DNA of 64,000 bases from an uncultured Spirochaetota bacterium. Its GTDB lineage: Bacteria > Spirochaetota > Spirochaetia > SZUA-6 > Fen-1364. The stretch spans positions 64,001 to 128,000 of the forward strand of contig CAVUXE010000052.1 in the NCBI GenBank assembly GCA_963745235.1, read 5' to 3'. The position numbers and the translations under genes were made by a program. Shown piece by piece: positions 6,293 through 40,018 of the stretch (positions within the stretch are counted from its first letter, which is position 1; each line of letters starts with the position of its first letter). Under the pieces are notes generated by a model. The model ran no database searches, was not told the DNA's origin, and saw only the letters and a list, made by a program, of their open reading frames with translations.

Positions 6293-7216
6293 TCAGCGGC
6301 CCCGAAGGATTGCCCCGACGCGTGACAGCAGAGACTGAACGCCCTTGAGCACGCGCGAGCTGCCGGAGGAAGAAAGGTCCTCCGCCGCCTCCTCCAGCGT
6401 GAACAGCGGTCCGTAGCGGGCATTCAATTCTCCCCAGTGCTTCCCTATGTACACATACAGGTCGGCTTCCGTCGCGCCGGAGAACCGCGAGAGGAGGCTG
6501 GTCTCACGGATGACGGCAATGATGGGTGAGTAGACCTTGTCGTACCAGGAGACAGCCGCCTCGTCGAAAGGGATCTCTTCGGTCTTGTCCAGGTTGATGT
6601 ACCACTTGTGCTCGCGGATATGGGAAAGGATCTCGTCGTAGCGTCCGACCTCGGTGAACTCCAGTGAGCACCCCGGTCGATGCTTGTCCAGCTTCGTCAC
6701 CTCGAAGAACCTGCGCTTCTCGAACTGGATCACGGCGAGCTTGATCTGGTCCCGCGTCATGTCCGGCGTGAGCGGAATCTCCGAGGAAAGTGAAATGACC
6801 TCCGCGTCAATGAACTCCGCCCCCTGCGTCTTGGCGACGGAGACGCGGTGATTCCCGTCCCGCACGAAATACGCGCCGCCGATCTCGAAAAGCTTGATGG
6901 GGGGAAGGATGATGTTGCGGTAGTGAGCCTCATCGACGCTCATCCACCGGCGCATCAGCTTGTCGTGCCTGGGAAGAAAGGCCTTGTTGAAGTCCCGGTA
7001 GCGCCCCTCGCTCCCCACGATCTTCTCTATGGGGACGGTCTGCATCCCCTTGTAGGTCTCCGATTCAGGGCGAAGCAGCGACCGGATGTCTCCCAGGGAG
7101 AGCATCTCGTCCTTCTGCGGTTTGAGCAGCGCAAGGATGCGCCCCAGGGTCTCCTTCATGCGGGCCCTGCCGAAATCCTGGCGGGTCATCGACGAGTACA
7201 TGCTGCTGCCGCTCAT
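6293..7216 (-). CDS. ParB/Srx-like domain protein (function unknown)
   Basis: 'IVGSEGRYRDF', 'LPPIKL', 'YFVRDGNHRVSVA' (DGxHR motif of ParB/Srx fold). Confidence 0.75.
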   Translation of the reverse strand: MSGSSMYSSMTRQDFGRARMKETLGRILALLKPQKDEMLSLGDIRSLLRPESETYKGMQTVPIEKIVGSEGRYRDFNKAFLPRHDKLMRRWMSVDEAHYRNIILPPIKLFEIGGAYFVRDGNHRVSVAKTQGAEFIDAEVISLSSEIPLTPDMTRDQIKLAVIQFEKRRFFEVTKLDKHRPGCSLEFTEVGRYDEILSHIREHKWYINLDKTEEIPFDEAAVSWYDKVYSPIIAVIRETSLLSRFSGATEADLYVYIGKHWGELNARYGPLFTLEEAAEDLSSSGSSRVLKGVQSLLSRVGAILRGR

Positions 7217-7865
7217 CGGGAGACCTCCAGGTTCAACACGGTGTGGTCATACGCGTTGAGCACCGTGGTCCCGGCGTAAGAGGCTTCCCGCGCCGCGTTT
7301 CGGTCGTAGAGATGCACGTGCCCGTGCACCAGGAAAGCGGGGCGGAAGCTCCTGATGAACCAGAGAAAGACCCGAAAGCCCGTATGACAGGGGTCAGGAA
7401 GGTCGTTGATACCGTACGGAGGGGAATGGGTGAGGAGAATGTCGAGGTACCTGCCATGGACGATCCTGTTCCAGATCATCCGGGGGAGCAGCCTCAACAT
7501 GACGAGAAACATTGTGAAATCACTGTACTGGTTGTCTCCCCCATTGTACCAGATGCTCCCTCCCAGCCCCGCGACGATGAGCCCTTTCACCCGCGTGACC
7601 TTCCCCTCCACGTTCGTCGCCCCGACCCCTTTCTGCCATGACGGCGTCTCCTCGAAGGGGTCGTGCCGGTACTCGGCCGGCCCTCCAGGTGATGGTTCCC
7701 GAATACGAAAAGAAGGGGCTTGTTCAGGGTGCTCACGATGAAATCGTAGTACTCCAGTGCGAGATCTCCGGCGCTCAGCACGAGGTCGACATCCGCGAAC
7801 CTGGCTTTCAGGTTCGCGCTGTAGATGACCGGATCTATGTGGTCGGCGATGCAGAGGACCTTCAT
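7213..7865 (-). CDS. Metallophosphoesterase (frameshift near 7680)
   Basis: 'CIADH', 'SAGDL', 'FGNH' in one frame; 'LLTHSPP', 'VHGHVH' in the next. Confidence 0.85.
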
Positions 7866-8036
7866 CCCGTTGTGCATCCCACTATAGCCAAAGGAGGAGA
7901 GCGCTTCGAATGCGGCCCGGCAGTCGAGTGTTTACATCGCCCCCGGCCATGCCGACCATTGAAGCATGGGGTCCCCCCCGGCGAATATCCGTGCACTTGC
8001 CGACCCGGCGAGGTATACTGGAAAAGGACGGATGAG

Positions 8037-8720
8037 ATGGTGAAGCGTGTCCTGGTAACTGTCGCTGTCCTGCTGGCAGGCCTTCCGGCATTCAGCGCAT
8101 CCACGTTCCTGGAAAAAGGAGAGGCCCTCTTCATCCAGAACCAGCCCCGGGAGGCCGAGCCCCTGCTGGAGAGCGCCCTCGATGACGATCCCTCCAACGA
8201 GAAGATCTATCTCTACCTTGGCATCATCTACCAGCAGCTGGGAGACCTCGACAAGGCCATCGACGTGCTGAAGCGCGGCCTCCCGGTTTCGACCTCGTAC
8301 AAGGACCTCATGTACTACAACATGGGCAACGACATGTTCGCCCGGAAGGACTACGCCCTGGCGGAACAGATGTACTCGGAAGCCATCGGCGTGAACAAGA
8401 ACCTCGCCGACGGCTACCTGAACAGGGCGAATGCCAGGCTTCAACTGCAAAGCTATGACGCGGCCGTGGACGACTACACCGTCTTCCTCCAGCTGCAGCC
8501 CCAGGACCCGCAGAGACCAAAGATCGAAGAGCTGATCCGCCTGCTTCGCCAGATGAAGGAAGCGAAGGTGAAGCAGCAGGAAGACGACATCGCCCGGCAG
8601 AAGGCGCTCATGAATGACGTCATGAGCAGCCTGAACAACGCCGGGGACGACACGAAGAACCTGTCCGTGGAGTCCATCAAGGCAAAGGACGACCCGGTCA
8701 GCGTCGACATCAAGGACTGA
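8037..8720 (+). CDS. Secreted TPR-repeat protein
   Basis: Signal peptide from ATG 8037, TPR repeats, C-terminal coiled coil; upstream TATACT -10 box. Confidence 0.8.
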   Translation: MVKRVLVTVAVLLAGLPAFSASTFLEKGEALFIQNQPREAEPLLESALDDDPSNEKIYLYLGIIYQQLGDLDKAIDVLKRGLPVSTSYKDLMYYNMGNDMFARKDYALAEQMYSEAIGVNKNLADGYLNRANARLQLQSYDAAVDDYTVFLQLQPQDPQRPKIEELIRLLRQMKEAKVKQQEDDIARQKALMNDVMSSLNNAGDDTKNLSVESIKAKDDPVSVDIKD

Positions 8721-8725
8721 AAGAA

Positions 8726-10652
8726 ATGAAAACACCCCTGGCCGGCCGCGACAGCGCCTCAGGAAAAGGCCGCTCGCGGGCCACGCGCGCGGCGAACGAT
8801 CTCCCTCCGCGGCAGCCGGAACAGCGCAGGCGACCGCGGGGTCTCCTCATCGCCGGGATCATCGTCCTGTGCGTCCTGGCAGCGGGGGGGACTTTCCTCG
8901 GGATAACCCTGAAAAAAGCCGCGGACGCCGGCCGCGTCGCCTCCAGCCTGAAGCAGGCCTCGTACTACGAGGGAAAGGGAGAATACGAGGAAGCCCTGAA
9001 GATCCTCAACGGCCTGGACATCGATGACCCCCGGGTGAAGCAGCTCCTGGACGACGTGCTTGCGAAGAAGAAGGCTGCCGATGAGGCCGCCCGGCAGCAG
9101 GAGCTTTCCGCGCTCCTGGCCCAGCAGGAGCAGCTTCGCGCGGGCTTGAACGAGCTGGGGGAAAAGCTGAAGAACCAGCCCCAGAAGATCGTCATCCAGC
9201 CGCCCCCGGAAAAGACCGCCGCTGAGAACGCAACGACCGCGGAGAAAGAGCGCCAGAAAAAGGTCCAGGACCTGCTGCAAAAAGGGCGCCGCGGCCTTCA
9301 ACGCGGGCCGGTACGCGCGAGGCCCGCAAGGATTTCGAGCAGGCAGCCGCTCTGGACCCGGGAAACTCCGACGCCCTCGCCTATGCCGGCCTTTCCTATC
9401 TTCGCGAGGATCCCTCGAATCCCGACGAACGTCCAGAAGGCGGTGGACCTGTCGAACAAGGCCATCGACAAGAACCCCGACAACTGGCTGCCGCACAGGA
9501 CCCTCGGCGAGATCTACGACAGCCGGAAGCTCGCCGACGACGCCATGAGGGAGTACAAGATGGCCGCCCGGCTGAACCCTGACGACGCCGACACCCTGTT
9601 CGCGCTCGGCAAGCTGCAGTACCGCGCAAAGCTGTTCGCCGACGCCCTGAAGTCATTCGACGGGTGCGTGCGCGCTGCGCCCGGATTTCACGTCAGCCCA
9701 TTTCAACAGGGGCATGAGCCTCGTTCAGCTCGGCCAGGGCGCACAGGCCATCGACGCGTTCAAATCGGCGCTGGCAACGAAGAAAGATTTCGCTGACGCC
9801 TACTACATGATCGGAAGCATTCTGGGACAGAAGGGCGACACCGCCGGAGCAGTGGACTACTTCAAGCAGGCCGTGCAGTACGCTCCCGACAACCCGGGCT
9901 TCCTGCGAGAGCTCGGCACCGCGTACATGACGCGGGGAGATTTCAGCAACGCGGAAGGCTCCTACGCGAAGGCTCTTGCCCTGCAGCCTGACAGCGCGAC
10001 GGCCAACTACAACATGGCCTCCGTCAAGATCAAGCTCGGCAAGGCCTCCGAGGCCCTTCCGTACGCGCAGAAAGCGGAGGACAAGGACCCGGATTCGGCC
10101 CCCAGCGCCTACATCCTCGGGCTGGCCAACGAGAAGCTGGGCAACTCGGATGACGCAATCAGGTACTACGGGATGGCCGTCCAGAAGGACCCCAAGTTCA
10201 GCCCCGCGCTCATCAATCTTGGCGGCATCTACGACAGCAAGGGCATGCCTGACCAGGCCTTGAGCTACCTCCAGTCAGCGGTGGAGATTGCCCCGGAATC
10301 CTACGAGGTGCACAACAACCTCGGCAATGTCTTCCTTCACAAGCAGCAGTTCCAGGACAGCATCACGCAGCTGACCAAGGCGCTCTCCCTGAAGCCCGAT
10401 GCGCGCGACACGCAGTACAACCTGGGTCTTGCCTACTCGGCGAACGGCCAGACCACGGAGGCAAAAACCGCGTTCATAGCCGTCCTGCGCCTGGACCCCA
10501 CCTACTGGGACGCGTACCTGAACCTGGCGCGGATATTGGTGAAGGAAGGAAACAACAAGGACGCCCGGGACATCCTGACGAAGCTCATTGCCAAGACCCC
10601 GAAGGCTGACGTGAAACAGGAGGCGCAGAAGCTGCTGGACCAGTTGAAGTAG
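8726..10652 (+). CDS. Membrane-anchored multi-TPR protein (several frameshifts, about 9285-9700)
   Basis: N-terminal TM anchor and coiled coil; continuous TPR repeats spread over ORFs 8726-9796 and 9714-10652. Confidence 0.8.
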
Positions 10653-10655
10653 CGC

Positions 10656-12404
10656 TCAGGCCCGGGGCGGCCTGTCCACGAGCTTTCGAAGGCTCTCCTC
10701 CGACAGCTCGTGCCAGATAGGCCTCCCGTGCGGGCAGCGCGGGACAGGCAGACGCAAAGCCTGGGCGCAGAGCTCGCGCGCGGTCACCGGGTCCACGACG
10801 TCTCCGTCCTTGATGGCCAGCCTGCATGCCGCCGTTGCTCGAAGAGACGAGCGCCACTCCTCTCCGCCGGCGCCGCGCACCAGCTCCACTAGGACCTCTT
10901 CGCGAAGGGAGCGAAAGTCATCTGCCAATGCCGCTATCTCGTAGGAACGGGATCCCACGCGCCGGACTTCTATGCCAAGGCCTGCCAGCTCCTCCTGAAT
11001 GCGCTCGAGGCGGACGCCCTCCTCCTCCGAGACATCGAAAGAAAGCGGGAAAAGCATTTCCTGCATTCGTGGCGCGGTCCCTGCAAGCCGCTCGAAGATG
11101 ATCCGCTCGTGCGCCGCGTGCTGATCCAGGATCAGCAGGCGGCCGGAAACCTCGAACACCAGGAACACGCCGAACACCTGGCCCAGGAATCGAATGTCCG
11201 GCCCTTCTTCCAGTCTCTGCGGCGCACCACCCTCCCGGGGAACAAAAGGAAGAGTCTGTCCGGGAGCGTAGGACGGAGGATACACGGGCGTGTTCGGTTG
11301 GCCGGGTGCCGGGGCCTGGGTTCGCGCGGATGACGGCACGGGATTGCCCGCCGGCGGCAGGCCAGCGTGAGCTTGACCCGCCAGGGCTGCATGGGCTTGC
11401 CCTGCCAGCCCCGCGCGCACCGCGCTCACCACCACCGAGTGGACATCAGCGGGGTTGCGGAACCGGACCTCCTTTTTTGCGGGATGTATATTGAAATCGA
11501 TCAGGCCAGGGTCTATGTCCACGAATACGAATGCAACCGGGAACCAGCCCCCGGGCATGAAGCCGGAAAATCCATACTCGACCGCCTGCATCAGGGAAAA
11601 CTCCGACACCCTGCGGCGGTTCACGAAGACCTGGACGAGCTTCCTGTCCCTGCGGCGCAGCTCGGGCCGACCCGCAACGACTTCAACCCTGAACCCGTTC
11701 CCTTCAGCCGAAGATGACACGAGCATGCGCGCATCCAGCCGCTGGGAGTAGCACAGCGAGATTCGGTCCATCGCGTTCGCCGGCGGGAGGGAGAGTCTCG
11801 CTTCCGTGTCATTGAACAGGCGGAAAGAAACAGCAGGGTGAGACACCGCCCGATCCACAAAGACAGCTCTGCACATCGCGGACTCCGCCGAAGCGCTTCG
11901 AAGGAACTTCCTTCGAGCGGGGAAATTGTAGAATAGCTCCGCGACGTCCACCACTGTCCCTTTTCGCCCCGGGCAGGCTTCTCCTCCCTGGAGCGCGCCT
12001 CCGAGGACCTCCAGCCGGTACGCAGGCTGGTCCGCAGCCGGGCAGCTCGTGATGGAAAGCCTGCTGCAGATGGCGATGCTGGACAGCGCCTCTCCTCGAA
12101 ATCCAAGGGTCGACACCCGCAGCAGGTCGTCTTCCGATTCGATCTTCGACGTCGCATGGGGCTTCCAGCACACCTGGAGGTCTTCCCGGCTCATGCCCGC
12201 TCCGTCATCCACCACGCGAACGCGGGCAAGGCCGCCCGCCTCCAGAAATACGTCAATCGAAGCGGCTCCCGAATCGACGGAGTTGTCCAGCAGCTCGCGG
12301 ACAATGGACTGCGGCCGGTCGATGACCTCGCCGGCCGCTATCTTTCGGGTTACCTCGTCCCGGAGGATCCTGATCCTCCGGGAACGAAGCTGGGAGTCGC
12401 TCAT
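10656..12404 (-). CDS. mutL: DNA mismatch repair endonuclease MutL
   Basis: 'KIAAGEVI', 'HATSKI', 'GFRGEAL', 'NIHPAKKEVRF', endonuclease motifs 'DQHAAHERIIFE', 'ACR', 'CPHGRP'. Confidence 0.97.
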   Translation of the reverse strand: MSDSQLRSRRIRILRDEVTRKIAAGEVIDRPQSIVRELLDNSVDSGAASIDVFLEAGGLARVRVVDDGAGMSREDLQVCWKPHATSKIESEDDLLRVSTLGFRGEALSSIAICSRLSITSCPAADQPAYRLEVLGGALQGGEACPGRKGTVVDVAELFYNFPARRKFLRSASAESAMCRAVFVDRAVSHPAVSFRLFNDTEARLSLPPANAMDRISLCYSQRLDARMLVSSSAEGNGFRVEVVAGRPELRRRDRKLVQVFVNRRRVSEFSLMQAVEYGFSGFMPGGWFPVAFVFVDIDPGLIDFNIHPAKKEVRFRNPADVHSVVVSAVRAGLAGQAHAALAGQAHAGLPPAGNPVPSSARTQAPAPGQPNTPVYPPSYAPGQTLPFVPREGGAPQRLEEGPDIRFLGQVFGVFLVFEVSGRLLILDQHAAHERIIFERLAGTAPRMQEMLFPLSFDVSEEEGVRLERIQEELAGLGIEVRRVGSRSYEIAALADDFRSLREEVLVELVRGAGGEEWRSSLRATAACRLAIKDGDVVDPVTARELCAQALRLPVPRCPHGRPIWHELSEESLRKLVDRPPRA

Positions 12405-12409
12405 CCCGC

Positions 12410-14665
12410 CTACAACTGGATCGACGTGGTTATCGAAACGGAGGTCGCCATGTCGGGCAGGGTGTTCCCCGGCGAATAGTGCAGCGTGCCATCCGGGTTG
12501 AGCACGGGTGTGATTGTGTACAGAAGAGAGAGCTCCATGATAGGGCTCACCGGGTAGTTGATCTGCGCCGTGATGTCCGTGTTCGCATTGAAGAACGCGT
12601 CATTCAAAGTGGACGGGATGTTGTTCCCCGAGAACAGGCTTGTGCGTTCGTACGAAACTGATCCCCAGATCTTCACGACTGGTATGGCACCCTTTTCTAT
12701 CTCGAAGCTCGCGATAAAGTGGTCCGGGTTGTTCGGGTCAGGCCCCCAAGAACCGCTGGATGAGTTGATGGTCCATGGCCAGAAGTAGCCCACTCTCAAC
12801 GCGAAGACCTTGCTCAGCTTGAACCCGCCCTCTCCGTAAATGCCCATGTTGTAGTTGTTGAACAGGGGGCTGGAAGGATTCTGGAGATAGCTCAGGACGT
12901 TCAAGACGTAGGCGGACCTGTTTCGCTCGTAGCCAGTGTCATAGAGCTGCGGCTGGAAGGTCCCGGTGAAATACCGGTACTCGAGCCTCCACGTGAGGTC
13001 CGCAGTGATCAGGTTGCCGAAGAATCCAGCGGCAGTGCCCCAGTTCTTCAAGGCGATTGTGGACGAAGGGCTCCAGACCGCGTCCGTTGCGAACCCCTGT
13101 GCTATCCAGGGGTAGGTCGGAGTGGTCGAACGGAAATACGGGAGCATGAGCGCTCCGTCAGTGAAGAACACGAGCCCGAAGGCGTCGCTCTCCACGAAAG
13201 GCAGATCCAGGTCTATCCCCGGGTCGATGAAGATGGGGTACCCTGCCGCTGCCGGGCCCACCGCTCCCGTGGACGGATCATAGAAATCCCGTGCCGGGTT
13301 CAGGTCCACGATCGCGGAAAATCCGATGGCTCCGCGGAAGCCCGGGATGGGCCGCACGTAGAGCCGGCCGCCCAGGATGTCCGGGGGATAGACGGAGCCG
13401 TTGACGATGGTGGGGACGGCGTCATTGACCATTGCCTCGAAACCACCCCCGCCGAAATCCGCCCCGATGTTGACCCCGACTCGACGAACCACGGGGAAGT
13501 CCCCGTCGTTGGAGAAATCCCGCATGATCAGCCCGTGGCCGATGGTGATGTCCTCCAGGTTGCCCAGCTTGAAGAAAAACGGATCACGCTGCCGTCCGTA
13601 TTCGACGTACTTGAACTTCAGCAGCAGGTCGCGGCTGATGTCTGCAACCACCCTCCCCGGGTCCCCGCCCTGGTCAGTTCCGAAGCTCCACTCGTCGTTG
13701 CCTTGGGGGTGGTACCAGTCCCCGGGGTCCAGCATGTTGTCCTGGTAGATGATGGGCAGGTAGAGCGCCATTTTCAGGTTGCCAACGGTAAAGGTCGGCT
13801 CGAGAACAGCCTTGCCATAGGTCTGCCCGTTGATCGTGACCGAGCCGATCTCGAATCCAAGAATGTCATGCAAGGCAGCAAAGAGATTGTCCATGAATCC
13901 GTTCTGCGCGGGGGCCGGCGGCGTGGCGGGGTTCTGCGCTGCCTGTTGCGCCTGGCTCGCCTGCTCCTGGTCGTAAGCCTTCTCCTGGGACAGCGCGTCA
14001 GCAGGATCCAGCTTGACGAAGTTCATTTCCTGCTGCAGCCCGGAAAGCACATCCTGCGGGATGGGTTCCGGCTTGAAGGACGCGGCAAGAGCGTCAGCGA
14101 AGTCTCCCTGGGGGACATCCAGGGCCTGGCCGGTCTTGATGTCCTGGATCCACCCCGTTCCTTCCAGGGTGTACAGCTTGGAGGTGCTTGCTTCCACGAA
14201 CTCCACCACGATATCGGACCCCCGGACTCCGCAGACCGCGGAGCCCGTCTTTATCTGGTACTTGTCCTTGGTGGAAGCCCTCCCGGCGACCGTGCGCACC
14301 TTGCCGACCCCCAGGGAGAAGATGTCCTGGCCGCTGGTCTCGGTCCGCAAGGCCTCCACGGTAAAGTTGGTGTTCTGGGAGATCTTGATGATGGTTCCGG
14401 TGTGGTTGACCTTCAGCTCCGCCAGGTCGCCTTCACCCGTGACGATGGTCCATCCGGGTTTCAGCTCATCCCCATCCTGGATTCCGGTCACCTCGGTGGT
14501 CTTGCCGGACATCACCCTGAATGTTCCGCTGTTGTCTTCATGATAGGAAAGGGTCACGGAGATCGCGGGAGGCTTTGCGGTTGCGGCAGCGGCCTGCGCC
14601 AGGAGAATGGCGGGCGATGCCAGGAGGGCCGCGAGTGCAAGTGCCGTGGAGAATCTCTTCCTCAT
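12410..14665 (-). CDS. FecR-domain protein fused to a predicted outer-membrane beta-barrel
   Basis: Signal peptide; FecR-like 'IKTGSAVCGVRGS'; C-terminal ~480 aa of amphipathic beta-strands paralogous to the upstream gene. Confidence 0.7.
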   Translation of the reverse strand: MRKRFSTALALAALLASPAILLAQAAAATAKPPAISVTLSYHEDNSGTFRVMSGKTTEVTGIQDGDELKPGWTIVTGEGDLAELKVNHTGTIIKISQNTNFTVEALRTETSGQDIFSLGVGKVRTVAGRASTKDKYQIKTGSAVCGVRGSDIVVEFVEASTSKLYTLEGTGWIQDIKTGQALDVPQGDFADALAASFKPEPIPQDVLSGLQQEMNFVKLDPADALSQEKAYDQEQASQAQQAAQNPATPPAPAQNGFMDNLFAALHDILGFEIGSVTINGQTYGKAVLEPTFTVGNLKMALYLPIIYQDNMLDPGDWYHPQGNDEWSFGTDQGGDPGRVVADISRDLLLKFKYVEYGRQRDPFFFKLGNLEDITIGHGLIMRDFSNDGDFPVVRRVGVNIGADFGGGGFEAMVNDAVPTIVNGSVYPPDILGGRLYVRPIPGFRGAIGFSAIVDLNPARDFYDPSTGAVGPAAAGYPIFIDPGIDLDLPFVESDAFGLVFFTDGALMLPYFRSTTPTYPWIAQGFATDAVWSPSSTIALKNWGTAAGFFGNLITADLTWRLEYRYFTGTFQPQLYDTGYERNRSAYVLNVLSYLQNPSSPLFNNYNMGIYGEGGFKLSKVFALRVGYFWPWTINSSSGSWGPDPNNPDHFIASFEIEKGAIPVVKIWGSVSYERTSLFSGNNIPSTLNDAFFNANTDITAQINYPVSPIMELSLLYTITPVLNPDGTLHYSPGNTLPDMATSVSITTSIQL

Positions 14666-14676: not shown

Positions 14677-16026
14677 TCAGAACAGAGCGATGGAGCTCTG
14701 CAGCCCGGACGTGATGATTGTGCTCGGAGACTGCCCCGGCCCCAGGTAGGAGAGCTGGTAGACGAACGAAATGACGGCGGGCCCCGACTTGAAGCTTATC
14801 TGCGCGCCGACCGACCCGTTCTGCTGGCTTACCAGGTCCCCGAGACTCGTTATGGACTGCTTGTCATACGAGAAGCTGAAGAAGAACCCTGGCACGACTC
14901 CCTCCCCGACAGTGAGGCTGGCGCGCAGCTCAGGATCCTGCAGGGACGCGAGGGTGGCTGACGTCTGGAAAGGGCCATCGAGTGTCACCGTGAAGACGAG
15001 CTTGTCACCCAGGAGCGAGGTGCCGGCGCTCACCAGGTATCCGAATGTGGAGCCGGTGACCCCGGAGGTCACGTAGGCATAGTCGGTCTGCCGGGACACA
15101 TCATACAGGGGTCCGAAGTAGTCGGGGATGAAGCTTGCCTGCATGAGCCGAAGCTGGGCGCCATAGGTGAAGATATTAATCAACCTGCCGCTGACTCCCA
15201 GCGCTCCTCCAACATTCAGCGAATTGATGCTGGCGACATCGGTGAAGACGGTCATGGAGGCGACGTCCTTGACGAAAAGCACAGGCACGCGGATGTCACC
15301 GCCGTACACGTAGACCGGCGCCGCCGGCGCCACCGCGGCGGGCTCAGTGCTCGTCTGCAGGGGGTTCGCGGACGCGGTGTCCGTGACGAATGTGCCGCCC
15401 ACCTGCATGTCCTTCAGGATGGAAATGTCGGTCCCGGCAAGCGGGCGAAGGTACAGCCTTCCGCCCAGGACGTCCATGAGAGCCAGGTTGCCCGCGAATG
15501 TCTCGACCCCGAGGTACGGGAAGCTCAGCAGCGCGCCGTCGACATCGGCCTCCAGGCCGAAATGCCTGTCTTGAGGAATGAAGTACATGTTGGTGTAGTC
15601 CCCCGCGATGAAACCGTCACCGAGGGTCACGTCGTCGAAGGACCCGAGCTTGAGGAACAAGGGGTCTCCCTTGAGGCCCCAACGGATGTAGTTGATCTTC
15701 GCAAGGTAGATCTGCAGGAAGGTCTGGAAGGTGGTCGGGACCCAGTCCGCCTGGCGAACGTAGATGGAGTTTCCCGGGCCGGTGAAGTTGTAGTTCAGCG
15801 TTATTGCCAACCCCACGCCGAGCTTTCCGAAAGAAATGTCGGGGAACAGGGAGAGGGACTGGTAGGCCACGGGCTGAGGCTCGTTGAATGTCTGCACACC
15901 AATGCCCAGGCTCATTCCAAAGCCGAGCGTCGGGTTTTCCGTGGAGGTTGCCTGCGAAAATGCCGGCCTCGCTGCCAGGCAGATCAGCAGCAGCGCAAGC
16001 GCGCTGCGCTCCAGGACTTTCACCAT
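14677..16026 (-). CDS. Predicted outer-membrane beta-barrel protein
   Basis: AGGAGG SD before ATG 16026; signal peptide; beta-strand pattern; terminal Phe; shares 'YIRWGLKGDPLFLKLGSFDDVTLGDG' motif with 12410-14665. Confidence 0.65.
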   Translation of the reverse strand: MVKVLERSALALLLICLAARPAFSQATSTENPTLGFGMSLGIGVQTFNEPQPVAYQSLSLFPDISFGKLGVGLAITLNYNFTGPGNSIYVRQADWVPTTFQTFLQIYLAKINYIRWGLKGDPLFLKLGSFDDVTLGDGFIAGDYTNMYFIPQDRHFGLEADVDGALLSFPYLGVETFAGNLALMDVLGGRLYLRPLAGTDISILKDMQVGGTFVTDTASANPLQTSTEPAAVAPAAPVYVYGGDIRVPVLFVKDVASMTVFTDVASINSLNVGGALGVSGRLINIFTYGAQLRLMQASFIPDYFGPLYDVSRQTDYAYVTSGVTGSTFGYLVSAGTSLLGDKLVFTVTLDGPFQTSATLASLQDPELRASLTVGEGVVPGFFFSFSYDKQSITSLGDLVSQQNGSVGAQISFKSGPAVISFVYQLSYLGPGQSPSTIITSGLQSSIALF

Positions 16027-16094
16027 TCGAGCCCTCCTTGTTACCAACGACTAAGTATATCGCCGGACAAGGGGCAAAACTACAGTCGCGGACC

Positions 16095-19000
16095 TCAGAA
16101 AGTCAGCTTCGCCTCGATGCCAAAGCTGACAGCGAGGCGCCAGATGAGGCCGCCCGTGAGAGCAGTCTCCGTGTCGGCCCCCAGGTCGACGCTTCCCTTG
16201 ACCGAGCCATGGTTTCGAAACACGAGTGAGGTCGCATGCCCGAAAAGGAGAGTGGCGGGATGGTAGTCGCTCCCGGGGGCGTAGTTGAGCGCGAAGTTCG
16301 CGCTTTCCCGATGGGCGATCCAGGCGTCCTTGCCGAGCGCGGCAGAGACATAGGGCACATTGATGCCCCCATCGGGATGAATGGACCAGTCCAGGTAGGT
16401 CTGAATCGAATTGATCAAAGAGATCTGCTCCGTTATTACGTTCTGATCCCACTTGAAGCTGTCCGCCAGGGTGAAACCCGTTTCCTTTTCCCCGAGCAGG
16501 CTCGCGGAGAGGACCGCCGTGGCCTCGGAGAACTGAAGGCTGTCAGCGGAGTCGCCTTCCACGGAAGCGCTCAGATTGATGCCGTATTCGTCGGTGGTGA
16601 TCATGGGCAGTCGCGGGATGGATCCAAGCCTTCCGAACAGGTTGACGGCATGGGAGGCGGTGTCCATCGTGATGTAGATGTTCGTCTGCGAAATTGAGGA
16701 TGCGAGACGAAGCATCTGTCCCACGGAAAGGTCCGCGCTCGATGGAATGAACAGGTCGCTGAGATGTGAGCCGTAGTTCCTCTTGACGCCCACCGTGAGG
16801 GCGGGGTTGTACGACGCCTGCGTGGTGGCGCCGTAACTTTCCCAGATGGGCAGGATGGCGCTCGTGTTGTCAGTGAAAAGCTCGATCAGGGGGAGCGAGG
16901 TCAGGAGGTATCCCTGCTGGGCGAGCACGTTCAGGAGCTCGTTCGTCTCCGTCACGAATCGAGGACCGGGCATGGGAGTTGTGGTCACGGAGAGCAGACG
17001 CTTGTAGCCGACGCTGAGGGTGGAATCCCCCTGGCCGACCTTGAACAGCGTTGCCGCGGAGAGCAGGACGTCGTTCTCCTGCGTATACGGTCCGGGGGCG
17101 GCCGGCAGGGCGTAGTTGCTTCCCTGGGCCTGCGTGCTGGCTTCCAGGTCCACGCCGATCGGATTCACAGGCATCTTGAGACTGGCGCCCAGCTTTTCAA
17201 GCCGGGCGTAGTCAAGACCGCTTTCATAGGGCGCAAGGAGGGAGAAGCCCTGCGTCCACTGGGTAATGTAGGCCTCCGAGCTGAGGGAGTAGCCAAGCAG
17301 CGACTGGGAAAGCTGCAGGTCAGATGTAAGAGTGAGGGGAATGGGCGGGGCAACCGACAGGTGTCCCAGCCATGTCTGGGTCAGGAGACCCGTTGTCGGA
17401 TCAAGGGCGGATTGGGAATCCGCGGATGCAGTTGTGGCCAGCACGGGGCCAAGATCCACCCGGTTCTCCCGGGAAAACCCGCCCCCACCGTCGATCGAGA
17501 ATGCATCCATGACTGTGAGAGGGACGATGACCGCGGGCACCGTCACCTTGTGCCCGCCGAACACCGCGAAGCTCCCGGCAGCTTCCCTCACCTTGATGTC
17601 CGCCTGCACCTGCGCGACGAAAACGTCCGCCCCCACCTCGGTTCGCGAGTAGAGGTTCTCCGCCGCCGAGGGGACTCCATACAGGGAGGAAAAGCCCGCT
17701 GACATCATGCTCAGGTCCTGCTGGATCTTGAGGTTCGACAGGATTGCGACGTTGCCTGCCTTCAGCACAGGGCCGGGAAGCTCCCCGGCGAAGGAGCCGG
17801 TGAAGGCCGCCCCCAGCGAACCCTGCGGGTCGGTGAAATAGATCTCGTCGATGAAGAAGACACCAGGGGCGGGCGGGGGACTCGTCGAGCCGCTCGTGGC
17901 GGCAACGGATATCTGAAGCTGCGTTATGTCACCCGTTGACGAATCGAATTTCGTCGGCGCGCCGACGGTGTTCCCGTCGATTTTCACCGTGTTGTCCGAA
18001 CGGGAGACTCTCAGCTCATGCCAGACGTTGCCGCTGAAAGCGGTGTCGTTGAGCTGCCACGATACCCCCAACCCGCCCGAATCGTAGAGGGTGAAGGTGA
18101 ATGTCGTCCCGGGGCTCGCCGGTGTTGGCATCCTCACATATGCCACCACTGTCTGGTACTTGATCCCTCCCGTGCCCTGAGTCGTAAACCCCCTGATCGA
18201 AAATGGATTCGCGATATTTGCAGGAGAGCCCCACTGCACCTCCAGGACATCCTGTTCTTCTCCGTTGGGATGGAATTGCTGGAGTTTTTGGGGGAACTTG
18301 TCAGGGAGACGGTTTCCAGCGCCCGGATCGAAAGGAGCGAACTGCTCCTGGATTTCCTGAACGGTGATGTTGTTGCGATCCGTTGCAGGCGGCGGAGCGG
18401 CCTGCACCCAGAACGGGGTAGCCTCAACGGAGATCGAGTCGATGAGGACGTACCCTGTTGCGCTCGTCACGCCCGTGTGCGGAACCAGGATGATCCGGAC
18501 CTCTCGCGCCTGGAGCAGCTTGGCGCGGTCCTGGTCGCTGAGGGCAACGGTGGCCGTCAACCATCCCGTCGTTATCGGCGTGGTGGAGGTGGCTCCCGAC
18601 GCAAGAGACAGGATAGAGGAGATTTCATCCGAGCCAGCTCCCGGTCCGATGGTCACGATCCTGGTAGCATCTTCCTGGTCAAGGAGACCGTTGGCGTTCC
18701 TGTCCTCGGAGTCGAGCTTCCCGTTGCCCTGCAGCTTGGGGCCGGCACCCACCAGGAGACTGATGTTGCCGTGACTGGGATTCGAATCCGTAAACGGAAA
18801 ACCGACGTCAGCAGAAGAAACCTTGGCCTTCAGGATCCCGCTTCCGTCCAGGTCTTCCGAAATGCTTCCAATCTGCACGTAGACGTCGGTCTGGCCGGTG
18901 ATGTTGTATCCCTCCAGCCTGATCGTGAGCGCTCGCGCCGTCGACACGTCGACGTCGCTGCCAGGTGAGATTGGCATCTGCGTGCCGACCCACAGGTTGC

Positions 19001-21107
19001 TCGTGTTGTCCAACTGGTACTGCAGCACGAGGCTCGTTCCGTTCGAGTCTCCCTGCGAGCTGCCAAGCACATTGAACGGACCCGCGCGGGAACCGTTGAC
19101 GTACGGCAAGGGAGCGGGCGCGCCTGACCAGTCAATCGGCTCCAGGCTGTACGAGCCCAGGGCGCCATACTGTCGGTAGTCCGTGTAATAGAGATATCCG
19201 CGGTTCGACTGACTGAGGCCGAGACCGCTCAACGCGGATTCCAGGGGAAGGCTGGCCGGATACGCCTGGTCCTCGGAAAGATCGAGGTTGATCGAGTGGC
19301 CTTCCATGCCGAAGAGGCGGAGAATTCCCGTGGTGTCTGGGTCCGTGAATGACACGGCGCCCTGCGCCATCCATGAGTAGTTCTTCCCCTTCCCTTGCAG
19401 CTCTGCCGCCCCGATGACCGTGCCCGATTTCGAGTACGCCTCCTGCGTGAAAGTCCATGGATCCGCGTTCCATCGCAGCCCCGCGGAGAGGGTGAGGGCA
19501 AGATTGTTTTTCAGGTCAATCTTGTCCTCCCAGGCAAAGAGAATGTCGCCTCCTGACAGCCCCTGCTCCGCGACCCGATACGTGACATCGATCTGATCCG
19601 TGGGCTGGATGGGCACCTGGAAGGTCAGCGTGCCGGAAGCCGCGTCCGCCTGGAAGCGCGTCTCCGTGATGCCGTTGATGGTGACCTGGACCGAGCCGGG
19701 AACGATGTTCTGCTCCAGAACGAAGGCGGTGACGGGCGCCACGAACTGGACGCGCATGCCGAAGCTGAACTGTCCGGCCAGAGAGTCGCGGTTCGGTCCG
19801 TAGAGGAGGTTGGATGGGTCCTGATTCACGAAGGGATAGAAGTCCGGGAAATTGCGCGGGAGCGAATCCTGCACGACCATGAACCGGCTTTGCCCCACGA
19901 CTGTCCGAAATGCAAATCCCGTTGGGATCGCGGATGCGGACGAAGAGGCCGATGTCGGCGCGGTGGCCACGAACTGGTACGCGATGTTCGAGGGGTCGGT
20001 CGGGGGCGTATTGGAGAAGGCATAGGAGTTGTCTATCTCGAAGGGTGAATTGTCCCCCGGCTGCCAGATCATCAGCGCAAGGCCGACCCCCTGCAGATTG
20101 AACCGCCTGGTCGAAACGAAACTCTGCCCTAAATAGGTCGTGAGCGGGTTCCAGTCGAAGTTTGTCGTGGCACCGGAGAACTTCAGAAGGCCGGTTGTCG
20201 AGTCTCGCGGAATTGCGTTGACAAGCAGGTTGGTCCCCACCGGTTGATTTCCGACCGTATAGTAGACCAGCACCCTCCCCTTCACCGCGTTGTTCAGCGA
20301 CACCAGCCCGTTCGTCGTGTCGATCGTAACGTCGGTCAACGTCGCCAGACGGTACGTGCTGGCGTGTCCAGCAGTGTCCGTGCCCATCACGGTCCCGTAC
20401 TTGTCTTCGAGGTACACGACCAGGCTGCCCACATCAATGTTCGTGTCCGGCAGGAAGAAGTACCGTCCTTTGGTGTAGGTTTCCAGGCCAACGTCCTGCT
20501 GGATCAGCTCGTTCTTTCCGACGAAAGTCTTGTGCTTGATGGCCGTGGAATCCCAGCGCAGCAGGAAGTCGTTCGTGGACGGGCCGGAGACGAGCTCCGC
20601 GGACGCCCCGATGGAGCTTGTCGGCTGCGCGGGAATCTCGAGGAAAGGACTTGGCGGAATGCTTATGCCGCTGTTTCCGATGACGAGGGACCTGAGCACC
20701 TCGTCAGGATCTCCCTTGTAGCCCATGCGGATCGTGTTGCCCTGCGCGCCGCTCAGCACGGATACGTCGAGGAAGTATTTCCTCATCAAGAGGAGGGAGA
20801 TCAGGAGATCCGGTGATTGGGTAAAGACAAAACCAGGGGCCAGCCCCGGAAATGAGTCGAGGGCCTGCACGGGGAGCCCCGGCGAGAAAAGCAACCCGGT
20901 TGTGAAGAGGAGGCTCGCATTCCAGGACCCTTGCAGGCTGAGGTCCACATCCGCGCCTCCCAGCTTGCTGGAAAAAACAGTGGTCGGCGCCTCCGGTTGC
21001 GGCAATGTGACGGTCTGGCCGAACGCCGATGCAGCGGCGATGAGCGCCAGGAGGGCTAGTGAGGCGGTCAGGGCGCTGTATCGGGTCACGCTGCCGGCAT
21101 TATCCAA
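16095..21107 (-). CDS. Very large outer-membrane protein, SprA/Sov-like (real start probably GTG 21089)
   Basis: Signal peptide, terminal Phe, and motifs collinear with SprA: 'YKGDPDEVLRSLVIGN', 'YTKGRYFFL', 'NIVPGSVQVT', 'QIGSISEDLDGSG', 'LDSEDRNANGLLD', 'FIDEIYF'. Confidence 0.6.
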   Translation of the reverse strand: MDNAGSVTRYSALTASLALLALIAAASAFGQTVTLPQPEAPTTVFSSKLGGADVDLSLQGSWNASLLFTTGLLFSPGLPVQALDSFPGLAPGFVFTQSPDLLISLLLMRKYFLDVSVLSGAQGNTIRMGYKGDPDEVLRSLVIGNSGISIPPSPFLEIPAQPTSSIGASAELVSGPSTNDFLLRWDSTAIKHKTFVGKNELIQQDVGLETYTKGRYFFLPDTNIDVGSLVVYLEDKYGTVMGTDTAGHASTYRLATLTDVTIDTTNGLVSLNNAVKGRVLVYYTVGNQPVGTNLLVNAIPRDSTTGLLKFSGATTNFDWNPLTTYLGQSFVSTRRFNLQGVGLALMIWQPGDNSPFEIDNSYAFSNTPPTDPSNIAYQFVATAPTSASSSASAIPTGFAFRTVVGQSRFMVVQDSLPRNFPDFYPFVNQDPSNLLYGPNRDSLAGQFSFGMRVQFVAPVTAFVLEQNIVPGSVQVTINGITETRFQADAASGTLTFQVPIQPTDQIDVTYRVAEQGLSGGDILFAWEDKIDLKNNLALTLSAGLRWNADPWTFTQEAYSKSGTVIGAAELQGKGKNYSWMAQGAVSFTDPDTTGILRLFGMEGHSINLDLSEDQAYPASLPLESALSGLGLSQSNRGYLYYTDYRQYGALGSYSLEPIDWSGAPAPLPYVNGSRAGPFNVLGSSQGDSNGTSLVLQYQLDNTSNLWVGTQMPISPGSDVDVSTARALTIRLEGYNITGQTDVYVQIGSISEDLDGSGILKAKVSSADVGFPFTDSNPSHGNISLLVGAGPKLQGNGKLDSEDRNANGLLDQEDATRIVTIGPGAGSDEISSILSLASGATSTTPITTGWLTATVALSDQDRAKLLQAREVRIILVPHTGVTSATGYVLIDSISVEATPFWVQAAPPPATDRNNITVQEIQEQFAPFDPGAGNRLPDKFPQKLQQFHPNGEEQDVLEVQWGSPANIANPFSIRGFTTQGTGGIKYQTVVAYVRMPTPASPGTTFTFTLYDSGGLGVSWQLNDTAFSGNVWHELRVSRSDNTVKIDGNTVGAPTKFDSSTGDITQLQISVAATSGSTSPPPAPGVFFIDEIYFTDPQGSLGAAFTGSFAGELPGPVLKAGNVAILSNLKIQQDLSMMSAGFSSLYGVPSAAENLYSRTEVGADVFVAQVQADIKVREAAGSFAVFGGHKVTVPAVIVPLTVMDAFSIDGGGGFSRENRVDLGPVLATTASADSQSALDPTTGLLTQTWLGHLSVAPPIPLTLTSDLQLSQSLLGYSLSSEAYITQWTQGFSLLAPYESGLDYARLEKLGASLKMPVNPIGVDLEASTQAQGSNYALPAAPGPYTQENDVLLSAATLFKVGQGDSTLSVGYKRLLSVTTTPMPGPRFVTETNELLNVLAQQGYLLTSLPLIELFTDNTSAILPIWESYGATTQASYNPALTVGVKRNYGSHLSDLFIPSSADLSVGQMLRLASSISQTNIYITMDTASHAVNLFGRLGSIPRLPMITTDEYGINLSASVEGDSADSLQFSEATAVLSASLLGEKETGFTLADSFKWDQNVITEQISLINSIQTYLDWSIHPDGGINVPYVSAALGKDAWIAHRESANFALNYAPGSDYHPATLLFGHATSLVFRNHGSVKGSVDLGADTETALTGGLIWRLAVSFGIEAKLTF

Positions 21108-21155
21108 TGGAACCCCGATTCATGCAAATGCTTGTCCGGGCCGAAAATGAGAAAA

Positions 21156-37991: not shown

Positions 37992-38374
37992 TGAGGATAG
38001 GCTCCATGCTGAGTGACATCATGCGCTCGCTCGTGCGCAGGCCGTTCACCGAGCGGTATCCCTTCGTCGTGAAACCCGCCCCCGAGCGCACGCGCGGCCG
38101 CCTGGAATGGGATGCGGAGAAATGCACCGGCTGCATGCTGTGCGTGAAGGATTGCCCCGCGGACGCCATCCAGGTCACCGTGGTGGACAGGGCCGCGAAG
38201 AAGTTGATCTTCCGATACCGCACTGACCGGTGCGTCTATTGCGGCCAGTGCGTTGTGAGCTGCAAGCCGGGCGCCCTCTCCATGTCACCGGAGCACTGGC
38301 ATCTTTCCTCGACAACGAAAGAGTCATTTTCAGTGGTCTACCAGAACCACCAGGGAAGCTCAGAGAAGGGGTGA
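37988..38374 (+). CDS. 2x[4Fe-4S] ferredoxin-like subunit (NuoI-like)
   Basis: 'CTGCMLCVKDCP' and 'CVYCGQCVVSC'. Confidence 0.92.
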   Translation: MMRIGSMLSDIMRSLVRRPFTERYPFVVKPAPERTRGRLEWDAEKCTGCMLCVKDCPADAIQVTVVDRAAKKLIFRYRTDRCVYCGQCVVSCKPGALSMSPEHWHLSSTTKESFSVVYQNHQGSSEKG

Positions 38375-38860
38375 CAGCTTTTGCGCCCATTTTCGGATGG
38401 CTTCCCAGTCCCGAATGTCCGATGCAGGCATCTTCTTGAGCGCTGGGATCATGGACCAGGGAAAACCAAGCCGGGACGGGTCGAACCTGCCGCCGAAAAC
38501 CTCCTTTGTAATCGGGCTGAACCAGGGGTATTTCTGGAGCTCCTTGTCAAGTTGCGCGCGTACGTCGTTCCATTCCTTCTCCACGTCATGGAAAGGTCCG
38601 AGGGCGAAAACGGCCGCCGGCATGTTTGCCAGAGTGCCCTTGTGCCGGGACAGAAAGCTCACTGCATCCTTGTGCCAACGGAACATGAAAAACGGCGCTC
38701 CGAGCACCACCGACCGGTACCCTTCGAGGGACTTCACCTCCTCGAGCCGCTTCACGGCGACTTCCCGCGGGCCCGCTCGGAGTGTCTCGCTTATTGCATC
38801 TGCAATCTCCTTCGTGGAACCACTGCGCGTGGCGTAACCAACAAGAATGGCATCTGGCAT
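38360..38860 (-). CDS. Flavodoxin-domain protein (HemG/Flavodoxin_5-like)
   Basis: 'YATRSGSTKEIA', 'FGGRFDP', 'DIRDWEAIRKWA'. Confidence 0.88.
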   Translation of the reverse strand: MPDAILVGYATRSGSTKEIADAISETLRAGPREVAVKRLEEVKSLEGYRSVVLGAPFFMFRWHKDAVSFLSRHKGTLANMPAAVFALGPFHDVEKEWNDVRAQLDKELQKYPWFSPITKEVFGGRFDPSRLGFPWSMIPALKKMPASDIRDWEAIRKWAQKLSPLL

Positions 38861-38959
38861 GGGGATCTCCTTCTCAGACTATTCAACACCGGTATGAGAG
38901 CGGCGCTGGCACCAGACAAATTCACCTTGCAAAGCACTGGCGGGCGAAAGTCGTTCACG

Positions 38960-39069
38960 GTTCTCCGCCCAGGGCCTTGAAGATGTCCTTCCGGGCCCTG
39001 GCTCGATTCATGTTGGACGCGGCGGAAGGGGGGCTCTACAAGAAGGAGGTCGTCGGGCTGGGCGCGTAG
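38960..39069 (+). pseudogene. C-terminal remnant of an NAD(P)H-binding (flavin reductase-like) protein
   Basis: 'MSFRALARFMLDAAEGGLYKKEVVGLGA*' resembles the C-terminus of that family; no N-terminal part present. Confidence 0.4.
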
Positions 39070-39087
39070 AAACAAAGGGGGGATACT

Positions 39088-39459: not shown

Positions 39460-39621
39460 TTGCGGTGGCCACCTGTCATAGTTCGAAAGATACAAACGCG
39501 CCCGCAGACCAGCAAGCCAGCGCAGCAATCGGGGGGGTCCGTCCGCTTTCGTTCGCGGGCTCCCTCACGAACAACTCCGTGTGGGGCCGCAGAATCTGCC
39601 TTTCCTTGATGCCTTATTTGA

Positions 39622-39989: not shown

Positions 39990-40018
39990 CTGTTGGAGCT
40001 CCGCAGGGGAGTCAATTT

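Follow-up and report, generated by a model that had tools for sequence, protein, structure and literature searches.

A predicted SprA-like giant outer-membrane protein in Spirochaetota, possibly part of a reduced type IX-like export module

The locus and its genes

The window (the whole stretch of 64,000 nucleotides from an uncultured Spirochaetota bacterium analysed here) carries on its minus strand a gene for a giant secreted protein, P0001, followed by two genes for beta-rich secreted proteins and by mutL, the gaps between consecutive genes being 47, 11 and 5 nt:

16095 to 21107, minus strand: P0001, predicted SprA-like giant outer-membrane protein (from the open reading frame and its translation; its strong structural matches are SprA chains only)
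14677 to 16047, minus strand: P0002, secreted, beta-rich, 456 aa, ending in ALF, of an unnamed family
12410 to 14665, minus strand: P0003, secreted, beta-rich, 751 aa; its N-terminal domain is FecR/LipL45-like, its C-terminal one a paralogue of P0002
10656 to 12404, minus strand: mutL (TIGR00585, 419.7 bits), a syntenic neighbour that is not claimed as part of any system

An earlier note on this DNA had described a secreted protein of 1,670 amino acids with a terminal Phe, and the ORF listing and translation bear this out: the reading frame opens with a TTG codon at 21107 (an alternative GTG start at 21089 retains the signal peptide), the N-terminus (LTASLALLALIAAASAFGQ) resembles a signal peptide, and the C-terminus reads ...EAKLTF. 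The six motif strings quoted in that note are all present, at residues 130, 211, 467, 745, 798 and 1085, and coincide with the best-conserved columns of a 28-sequence alignment of the P0001 family; the invariant columns of these 28 sequences include Y130, G132, G144, G214, F217, L219, P220, D221, S472, G747, E751, D752 and D1087. Since all ten family representatives that were looked up, including two proteins from a cultured species, carry the labels 'hypothetical' or 'uncharacterized', the family also represents an annotation gap; uncharacterised members occur in Spirochaeta (Winmispira) thermophila. A scan for promoters and terminators gave results at chance level, one promoter-like site overlapping the start codon. 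One peat metatranscriptome run contained 5% of the sampled words and yielded four contigs of 151-212 nt, three on P0003 and one on P0001; these are a hint at most, given that DNA carry-over is possible.

Residues 73-169 of P0003 belong to the FecR family (PF04773, 28.2 bits, cut-off 24); the score against the LipL45 model NF033165 (35.5 bits, 5.7e-9) is far under its cut-off of 350 bits, and P0003 is therefore not a LipL45 orthologue. The relationship between the two downstream proteins is apparent in BLASTP, where residues 283-719 of P0003 match P0002 (2e-16, 25% identity). The look-alike clusters of P0002 in a protein atlas are unnamed and occur most often in Spirochaetota, and named clusters of porin-like type, at 0.90-0.91, are weak leads; profiles of P0002 and P0003 searched against solved structures returned chance-level rows only (E 0.28-3.6).

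Predicted fold of P0001 and its resemblance to SprA

P0001 was modelled with AlphaFold, without templates, as two overlapping parts which together cover residues 31-1670, from alignments of 19 sequences only; the pLDDT was 72.5 for the model of residues 31-1150 and 76.2 for that of residues 471-1670, with pTM values of 0.47-0.50. The predicted parts of the chain are the following:

20490 to 20975, minus strand: N-terminal strand region, residues 45-206 (DSSP of model m59cc6ce4d327), inside the part aligned to SprA from residue 132 onward
19341 to 19547, minus strand: four long barrel-type strands, residues 521-589, common to both models
17865 to 19340, minus strand: large inserted non-barrel region, residues ~590-1081, with VIA matches to CBM11, CBM27 and CBM30 (Z ~11-12 over ~150 residues)
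16104 to 17864, minus strand: residues 1082-1668, a run of 26 long beta-strands up to the terminal Phe (DSSP of model m7fc95b92e327), within the portion that aligns with the SprA C-terminus

The N-terminal region is predicted to comprise two 16-residue strands (54-69 and 92-107) and several shorter ones, and contains the YKGDPDE...IGN motif; the inserted region 590-1081, which in the models includes a CBM-like beta-sandwich, holds the QIGSISEDLDGSG and LDSEDRNANGLLD motifs and probably provides cap or decoration domains, and the C-terminal run of 26 strands is predicted to be the bulk of the barrel wall. DSSP of the two partial models counts, in the segments 521-589 and 1082-1668, 30 strands that are 10 or more residues long; 2-8 N-terminal strands are to be added, leading to an estimate of ~32-40. 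SprA itself is described, in PMC10994853 and in PDB entries 6H3I, 6H3J, 8GL6 and 8GL8, as a capped 36-strand barrel with a lateral opening.

When the model of residues 31-1150 was compared with solved structures by Foldseek, the top four matches were all SprA chains (8gl6_A, 2.7e-33; 8gl8_A, 4.8e-32; 6h3i_A, 1.6e-28; 6h3j_A, 2.1e-20), with query-normalised TM values of 0.44-0.59, the next match being at 8.1e-10. VIA superimposed the same model on 8gl6_A with a Z of 21.3 and an rmsd of 5.4 Å over 810 aligned residues (model residues 21-1120 against SprA 132-1560), the runner-up after SprA being a 151-residue CBM at Z 12.3; in a search independent of Foldseek, 6h3i_A ranked first among 48,161 chains (Z 18.9, 818 aligned), followed by a match of Z 12.7 over 221 residues. 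The model of residues 471-1670 also has SprA chains as its top four Foldseek matches (3.2e-25 to 4.1e-20; next match 1.1e-6), and VIA aligns 890 of its residues to 6h3j_A, reaching SprA residue 2402. In the rigid-body scores of VIA, SprA (Z 11.5-12.1) is not separated from porins and TonB-dependent receptors (Z 12-13.7) on this C-terminal model, a behaviour attributed to the fact that a partial, unclosed barrel was aligned as a rigid body; for this reason Foldseek is relied on for the C-terminal half and VIA for the N-terminal half. The match as a whole is collinear, the N-terminal model corresponding to SprA 132-1560 and the C-terminal one extending up to 2402, and it comprises 810-907 aligned residues of both barrel and non-barrel parts, with a sequence identity of 10-14%. 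LptD and Deinococcus SlpA/SDBC, which share with P0001 a beta-barrel wall, are weak Foldseek matches to the C-terminal model (1e-4 to 9e-6), trailing SprA by at least 19 orders of magnitude and leaving the inserted domains uncovered. A lead in the same direction came from the protein atlas, where 25 of 30 feature matches fall in a set in which 12% of members carry PF14349 (SprA_N).

The HMM search against SprA profiles proposed in the earlier note gave no HMMER match of P0001 to PF14349 or TIGR04189 (E<=1). At E<=10, the two profiles matched none of 28 P0001 family members and none of five versions taken from other lineages; they also matched none of 28 members at greater distance (E<=0.01), and nothing in the host genome or in 401 Spirochaetota genomes, no control genome being matched by PF14349 either. 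Solved structures searched by sequence, with P0001 alone and with the full-family profile, yielded no match at E<=10; a homologue search from the distant-member alignment contained no bridge to SprA among the 11 matches listed, and in a representative search with the P0001 family the best 150 of 1,182 matches were all clear family members.

The SprA-like giant barrel that the earlier note had proposed on the basis of motifs is thus supported by structure prediction, SprA being the sole strong match of both models. Like SprA/Sov, P0001 is secreted, ends in an aromatic residue and is predicted to be a giant barrel of the outer membrane into which folded domains are inserted, the structural match being collinear over 800-900 residues; P0001 differs in being ~730 residues shorter than the ~2,400-residue SprA chains, in the lack of a HMMER match to PF14349/TIGR04189, and in its occurrence in Spirochaetota and not in the FCB group. 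From the predicted structures, we infer homology with SprA/Sov as a very distant relative, recognisable by its fold and not by HMMER.

Candidate cargo and carrier proteins

Of the 401 Spirochaetota genomes sampled, 186 contain the SprA-like family, each with 1-3 profile matches; 30 related loci all derive from Spirochaetota, Spirochaetia, Spirochaetales or Spirochaetaceae MAGs. Type IX secretion (T9SS) is described in PMC4793230 and PMC10994853 as a system of the Bacteroidota or the FCB group. The literature search retrieved no paper tying SprA or T9SS to spirochetes, supplementary tables such as those of TXSScan lying outside its scope; apparent 'SprA' text matches in Treponema papers turned out to be 'spray' or 'Sprague'.

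A search for a shared C-terminal sorting domain, also suggested in the earlier note, was positive: four paralogous host proteins of more than 1,000 aa match TIGR04183 (T9SS type A sorting domain, Por_Secre_tail) with 29.6-31.7 bits (cut-off 23), the match stopping 2 residues short of the C-terminus, whereas none of 14 control genomes has a match at the cut-off. These C-terminal domains (CTDs) share with the known sorting domain their length of ~75 residues and their placement at the very C-terminal end of large proteins of surface type; they differ in that Pfam places them in FlgD_ig (PF13860, 40.4 bits) and not in its own Por_Secre_tail model. Profile iteration from the four CTDs gave no further CTD proteins in the host genome. 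The CTD occurs in 113 of the 401 Spirochaetota genomes, in 96 of 186 with the SprA-like gene against 17 of 215 without it; in family f2, 32 of 50 genomes carry the SprA-like gene, and the 10 genomes positive for the CTD all belong to these 32 (hypergeometric p 0.006).

A candidate carrier is encoded outside the window, on contig C48. This protein of 411 aa matches the PorV/PorQ model NF033709 over positions 2-323 of 326 (E 1e-17), with 65 bits against a cut-off of 90, and PorQ at E 5e-9; it belongs to UPF0164 (PF03687, 158.1 bits, cut-off 21.4), in agreement with the precomputed Pfam assignments of the protein and of its relatives, many rows of the latter also listing TPR families. UPF0164 we take to be the family of the Treponema pallidum FadL-like outer-membrane paralogues. 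Complex prediction of the C48 protein with the CTD gave a score of 0.85, the best of three controls scoring 0.00; 58 of 80 solved complexes, but 2 of 110 mismatched pairs, attain the mark applied. The runs share at least 87% of contacts, with a partner pLDDT of at least 83; this positive outcome may stem from the solved PorV-CTD complex (8gl6) and not from binding by the C48 copy. UPF0164 was found in 140 of 381 genomes, 124 with the SprA-like gene and 16 without a SprA-like match, one of the latter having five copies. In three other genomes (all f19, chosen because the coordinates of the gene pair already lay on one contig) the UPF0164 gene lies immediately upstream of a gene whose product ends in a CTD, both being on one strand. 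In the consulted part of a Brachyspira preprint (10.1101/2025.01.03.631275), a PorV/PorQ-family 14-strand protein is noted, and no translocon. The C48 protein resembles PorV/PorQ (NF033709, NF033710, NF033711) in its near-full-length match, in its predicted CTD binding and in the CTD-gene adjacency of its relatives, and differs in scoring below the curated cut-off and in its membership of UPF0164. Across the phylum, the distributions of CTD and UPF0164 both follow that of the SprA-like gene, in counts that ignore phylogeny and are in large part driven by large clades devoid of all of these genes.

A possible reduced export module and its alternatives

The reading preferred here, to which a probability of about 0.6 is assigned, is that P0001 is a SprA/Sov relative acting in an outer-membrane export module that is T9SS-like but reduced, and in which no motor is recognisable. 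P0001 would form a giant barrel of ~36 strands, its wall being contributed by the N-terminus, the four central strands and the 26 C-terminal strands, and the folded domains inserted between these parts would correspond to the SprA cap; most likely it would serve to export surface proteins that are delivered by Sec, are folded and carry a T9SS-type beta-sandwich at their C-terminus, the CTD being handed, by analogy with PorV, to the UPF0164 protein, a putative PorV/PorQ-like carrier of the 14-strand type encoded elsewhere in the genome. As to the single roles (channel function of P0001, CTD proteins as cargo, UPF0164 as carrier), we infer them from the predicted fold and complex, the domain matches and the co-distribution.

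Alternatively, the SprA fold may serve another job, P0001 being a housekeeping outer-membrane factor that works with P0002 and P0003 (for instance in building the envelope, taking up large substrates or anchoring a surface layer), and the CTD proteins and UPF0164 being unrelated to it. The wide conservation of the gene, with 1-3 matches per genome, its housekeeping neighbourhood beside mutL and its tight packing with P0002 and P0003 are in keeping with this proposal, as are the 90 of 186 SprA-like genomes without a CTD match at E<=1e-4, the 16 genomes having UPF0164 without a SprA-like match, and the failure to find motor and sortase in the host genome. The downstream genes, however, do not behave as fixed partners. 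The earlier note had observed that two barrel genes follow P0001 and had inferred a different accessory set; both are indeed downstream, while their being that set is not supported, as they are adjacent to the SprA-like gene in only 5 of 16 other-lineage loci. Among 30 close loci, P0002 and P0003 lie downstream in 23, six of the seven misses ending within 220 nt past the gene; at locus L024, ~1,440 nt downstream of the SprA-like gene contain no P0002 or P0003 match. P0002 was detected (E<=1e-8) in 121 of 401 Spirochaetota genomes: 84 have both it and the SprA-like gene, 102 the SprA-like gene only, 37 P0002 only and 178 neither. The idea of P0002 and P0003 as obligate partners was thus rejected on the 5 of 16 loci and on the lack of P0002 in 102 of 186 genomes; the best reading is that they are lineage-specific companions of the SprA-like gene, and the PorV/PorQ-like UPF0164 protein is the better accessory candidate. 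The conserved neighbours in other lineages, an unnamed ~690-aa protein, an M23 peptidase and a DHH protein, are uninformative. Considering also the strong enrichment of both CTD and UPF0164 where the SprA-like gene is present, and that T9SS translocation is given as the sole known function of the SprA fold in the consulted portion of PMC10994853, a different job for P0001 appears unlikely, although it is the best of the alternatives.

The composition of the host genome, which is 85.7% complete in 104 contigs, bears on a second alternative, namely that a complete canonical T9SS is present, with PorK, PorL, PorM, PorN, PorU, PorV and other parts too divergent for curated HMMs or missing from the assembly. 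The incompleteness of the genome leaves room for this, as does the fact that P0001 is itself invisible to SprA HMMs, so that other parts could be too. The earlier note had recognised no PorK, L, M, N or PorV genes: for PorL, PorM and PorN the absence extends to the whole of this 85.7% complete genome in profile searches, whereas the PorK and PorV families give matches below threshold. PorU was likewise not found, its model NF033707 matching through the CTD part only; consequently, cleavage and attachment of the CTD proteins cannot be deduced. A functioning T9SS is defined by its motor (PorL/GldL with PorM/GldM), its ring (PorK/GldK with PorN/GldN) and its sortase (PorU). Of the single models, GldM has no match, GldL a best E of 0.019, GldN none (a model that matched no control genome either), PorP (TIGR03519) none, and the PorV equivalog NF033710 reaches 15.5 bits only. 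The partial match to the GldK model on contig C99 (99.5 bits), which would favour a complete system, is far under the 350-bit cut-off and spans model positions 218-404 only, and no cluster of T9SS genes was seen near the SprA-like gene in 46 loci inspected, P0002, P0003 and mutL being the neighbours here; a complete canonical system is accordingly judged improbable. Finally, a convergent or artefactual resemblance, with P0001 as an unrelated giant barrel bearing inserted beta-sandwich domains, might be suspected from the missing sequence-level match to SprA, the 10-14% identity, the pTM of 0.47-0.50 and the 19-sequence alignments, but is highly implausible in view of two independently modelled, template-free halves that both pick SprA 19-23 orders of magnitude before any other chain, collinearly and with barrel and non-barrel parts together over 810-907 aligned residues.

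What is new in the preferred reading of a reduced export module is a predicted structural homologue of the T9SS translocon in roughly half of the spirochete genomes that were sampled, together with a cargo tag and a PorV-like partner, and without a motor. Extended to the phylum, it leads to the tentative suggestion, for which the odds are somewhat short of even, that many Spirochaetota carry a minimal T9SS made up of an SprA-like translocon, a PorV-like UPF0164 carrier and CTD-tagged surface proteins, with no recognisable motor. If this is true, the outer-membrane module of T9SS is not confined to the FCB group, and either predates the phylum split or was transferred; carrier release would be powered by something other than PorLM/PorKN, and the spirochetal UPF0164 'FadL-like' outer-membrane proteins would be secretion carriers and not lipid importers. 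To our knowledge, the passage of large spirochetal surface proteins across the outer membrane is poorly understood; the module, should it work as proposed, would offer an export route for such proteins, would widen the range of T9SS, and would represent a natural 'minimal' version in which to ask which step needs energy.

The P0001 gene and its family

The gene for P0001, the SprA-like giant outer-membrane protein, is followed on its own strand by three others:

16095-21107, minus strand: P0001, 1,670 aa
14677-16047, minus strand: P0002, 456 aa, ending ALF, 3' of P0001 after a gap of 47 nt
12410-14665, minus strand: P0003, 751 aa, with an N-terminal FecR/LipL45-like domain, after P0002 with a gap of 11 nt
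minus strand, 5 nt after P0003: mutL

The earlier note had described P0001 as a secreted protein of this length with a terminal Phe and six quoted strings likened to SprA motifs, and all of these are present in the ORF listing and translation: the N-terminus is hydrophobic and signal-peptide-like, the C-terminal end reads ...KLTF, and the six motifs, at residues 130, 211, 467, 745, 798 and 1085, fall on invariant or near-invariant columns of the family alignment (28 sequences). The start codon is a TTG at 21107, an alternative GTG six codons downstream retaining the signal peptide. The lone sigma-70-like site in 13 kb (21099-21128, minus strand; a count at chance level) overlaps the annotated TTG.

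A word-indexed search returned 57 relatives of P0001, none with a Pfam domain, the named ones being 'hypothetical protein' of Spirochaetia MAGs; a profile of the N-terminal 1,120 residues, searched exhaustively, reached 1,182 clusters at E<=1e-3 and 590 at E<=1e-30. All ten family representatives looked up, including Spirochaeta (Winmispira) thermophila proteins, are labelled 'hypothetical' or 'uncharacterized', and no mention of their locus tags was found in the literature searched. By profile search the gene occurs in 186 of 401 sampled Spirochaetota genomes (152/335 of high quality; 102/153 genera), entire families being without it (0/75 in family f20 and 0/8 in f5; 1/38 in f25).

The frame is broken in five of the 24 loci inspected (L007, L010, L016, L021 and L023), probably by assembly frameshifts rather than as pseudogenes, and these were excluded from the alignments. 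At locus L033 (genome G015, 8258-12873) the gene consists of two adjoining frames of 402 and 1,137 aa, and a frame of ~1,137-1,146 aa is seen again in genomes of the related genus g2, which could be a true split or a common frameshift. At L031 (G250, 6600-12911, minus strand) a 2,104-aa frame runs without a stop from an IMS/DinB-type polymerase (residues 56-395) into the SprA-like part, so the barrel protein itself is not 2,104 aa long.

Relation of P0001 to SprA

Sequence profiles did not recover the relationship that the earlier note had proposed to check in this way: HMMER gave no Pfam or NCBIfam match to a SprA family in P0001 at E<=1, SprA_N matched 0/28 family members at E<=10, and the SprA families matched 0/28 more distant relatives at E<=0.01 and 0/5 versions from other lineages at E<=10. 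PF14349 and TIGR04189 had no match in the host genome, nor had PF14349 across the 401 Spirochaetota genomes, no control genome matching PF14349 in either search; P0001, as sequence and as profile, had no matches among PDB sequences. The sole sequence-derived pointer to SprA, to be taken as a lead only, comes from a protein-language-model atlas, in which 25 of the 30 nearest clusters lie in a set with SprA_N on 12% of members.

The proposed homology to SprA rests on predicted structure. Alignments of 19 sequences from related loci were used to model P0001 in two overlapping halves, and in the Foldseek comparison, which the earlier note had suggested, both rank SprA chains first. For residues 31-1150 (pLDDT 72.5, pTM 0.50), Foldseek against the PDB gave SprA chains at 2.7e-33 to 2.1e-20 (best other 8.1e-10), with a query-normalised TM of 0.57-0.59 for three of them. 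VIA-align superposed model residues 21-1120 on SprA 132-1560 of 8gl6_A (Z 21.3, rmsd 5.4 A, 810 aligned residues), the remaining three SprA entries scoring Z 14.7-18.8 and the best non-SprA entry, one 151-residue CBM domain, Z 12.3; in a Foldseek-independent search 6h3i_A was first of 48,161 representative chains (Z 18.9, 818 aligned), the second reaching Z 12.7 over 221 residues. For residues 471-1670 (pLDDT 76.2, pTM 0.47), with 26 long strands in succession at 1082-1668 and four further at 521-589, the four SprA chains (8gl6_A, 8gl8_A, 6h3i_A, 6h3j_A) came on top in Foldseek (3.2e-25 to 4.1e-20), against 1.1e-6 for the best non-SprA match and ~1e-4 for LptD; 6h3j_A aligned over 890 residues, reaching SprA residue 2402. 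Rigid-body alignment of this part did not discriminate, porins scoring up to Z 13.7 and SprA Z 11.5-12.1. The DSSP strings of the two partial models suggest ~32-40 strands, compatible with the 36 of the SprA barrel (PMC10994853).

Candidate carrier, cargo and neighbouring genes

On contig C48 of the host, outside the window, a 411-aa protein whose relatives are annotated UPF0164 (PF03687) is matched full length by the PorV/PorQ family model (E 1e-17; 65 bits, below the cut-off of 90) and by the PorQ model (5e-9). Its predicted complex with a T9SS-type C-terminal domain (CTD) scored 0.85, the best of three controls scoring 0.00; at least 87% of contacts are shared between runs, partner pLDDT is at least 83, and the mark used is reached by 58/80 solved complexes and 2/110 mismatched pairs. 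The prediction supports binding of the CTD by this protein, although the pass may reflect mere likeness to the solved PorV-CTD complex (8gl6). Divergent from the UPF0164 gene lie three large unannotated genes (L049, 10209-17876, plus strand; 1,002, 447 and 1,338 aa) with weak 'choice-of-anchor' and OmpL47-type matches and no CTD.

The common C-terminal Ig-like sorting domain for which the earlier note had advised a search was found in four paralogous host proteins of >1,000 aa, which match TIGR04183 (T9SS type A sorting domain) at 29.6-31.7 bits (cut-off 23, reached by 0/14 control genomes), the matches stopping two residues short of the stop codon in all four; the same domain is FlgD_ig in Pfam (40.4 bits). 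In nine other genomes (G004, G006, G020, G034, G046, G058, G069, G079 and G264) the scored CTD matches number at least 13-14 and the first-look candidates up to 83, which suggests large CTD-tagged secretomes in their lineages.

P0002 is paralogous to residues 283-719 of P0003 (BLASTP 2e-16, 25% identity), and neither profile found anything in the PDB. The pair lies downstream of the SprA-like gene in 23 of 30 close loci; six of the other seven are contig ends near the gene, and L024 has ~1,440 nt downstream with no match. The upstream genes are also syntenic in the close loci, which thus represent a conserved chromosomal region. Among 16 more distant loci the pair adjoins the gene in five (families f3, f9, f11 and f19) and is missing at the other 11; in at least one genome it stands together at another place. 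P0002 occurs in 121/401 genomes (84 with both, 102 with the SprA-like gene only, 37 with P0002 only). The two following genes of the earlier note's account do lie on the same strand; the idea of a fixed accessory set was rejected on the 5/16 adjacency and the 102 genomes, and the pair are companions of the SprA-like gene in some lineages. Elsewhere in the window, at 38000-46000, G+C falls from ~0.61-0.65 to 0.45-0.58 (minimum at 42001-44000), and this stretch could be a foreign DNA island.

A proposed reduced module and its rivals

A first rival explanation is a SprA fold with a different, housekeeping role. The CTD occurs in 113/401 genomes, 96 of them with the SprA-like gene, and in 17/215 genomes without it (odds ratio 12.4, a statistic that ignores phylogeny); in family f2 all ten CTD-positive genomes are among the 32/50 with the gene (p 0.006). 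UPF0164 is found in 140/381 genomes, 124 with the gene and 16 without, one of the genomes lacking it having five UPF0164 copies. In three f19 genomes, selected for having UPF0164 and CTD on one contig, a UPF0164 gene directly precedes, in the same orientation, a gene of 871-1,112 aa whose product ends in a CTD of this type.

A second rival is a complete T9SS too divergent to detect. In profile searches of the host genome (85.7% complete) PorP, GldM and GldN were not found, nor, as counted here, were the PorV equivalog (15.5 bits at best) and GldL (best E 0.019); the GldK model gave a partial match (99.5 bits against a 350-bit cut-off), and the PorU model matched through its CTD part alone. On host contig C35, a protein open at its 3' end (L051, 1285-3201, plus strand) carries a barrel-like region at its N-terminus and, after it, several FlgD-Ig-like repeats (WDG...PDG.Y motifs); its downstream part matches the PorU model in the CTD region (E 0.018). 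Resemblance to SprA by convergence is unlikely; taken together, the predicted match runs collinearly over nearly the whole chain, from close to the N-terminus as far as the C-terminus, and includes the inserted domains as well as the barrel.

In Flavobacterium, PorV loops bind the CTD within the SprA pore, and energy is needed to pull the carrier-substrate complex off the translocon (PMC10994853); no homologue of this release energy chain was detectable in the host genome. The available part of a systematic survey places T9SS in Bacteroidetes only (PMC4793230), and no description of a SprA homologue or of a T9SS in spirochetes was found in the literature searched. The most economical reading of the P0001 system is a reduced T9SS-like outer-membrane module, which would bring together CTD-tagged surface proteins, a carrier resembling PorV and a channel resembling SprA; the parts that these play as cargo, carrier and channel are all inferred.
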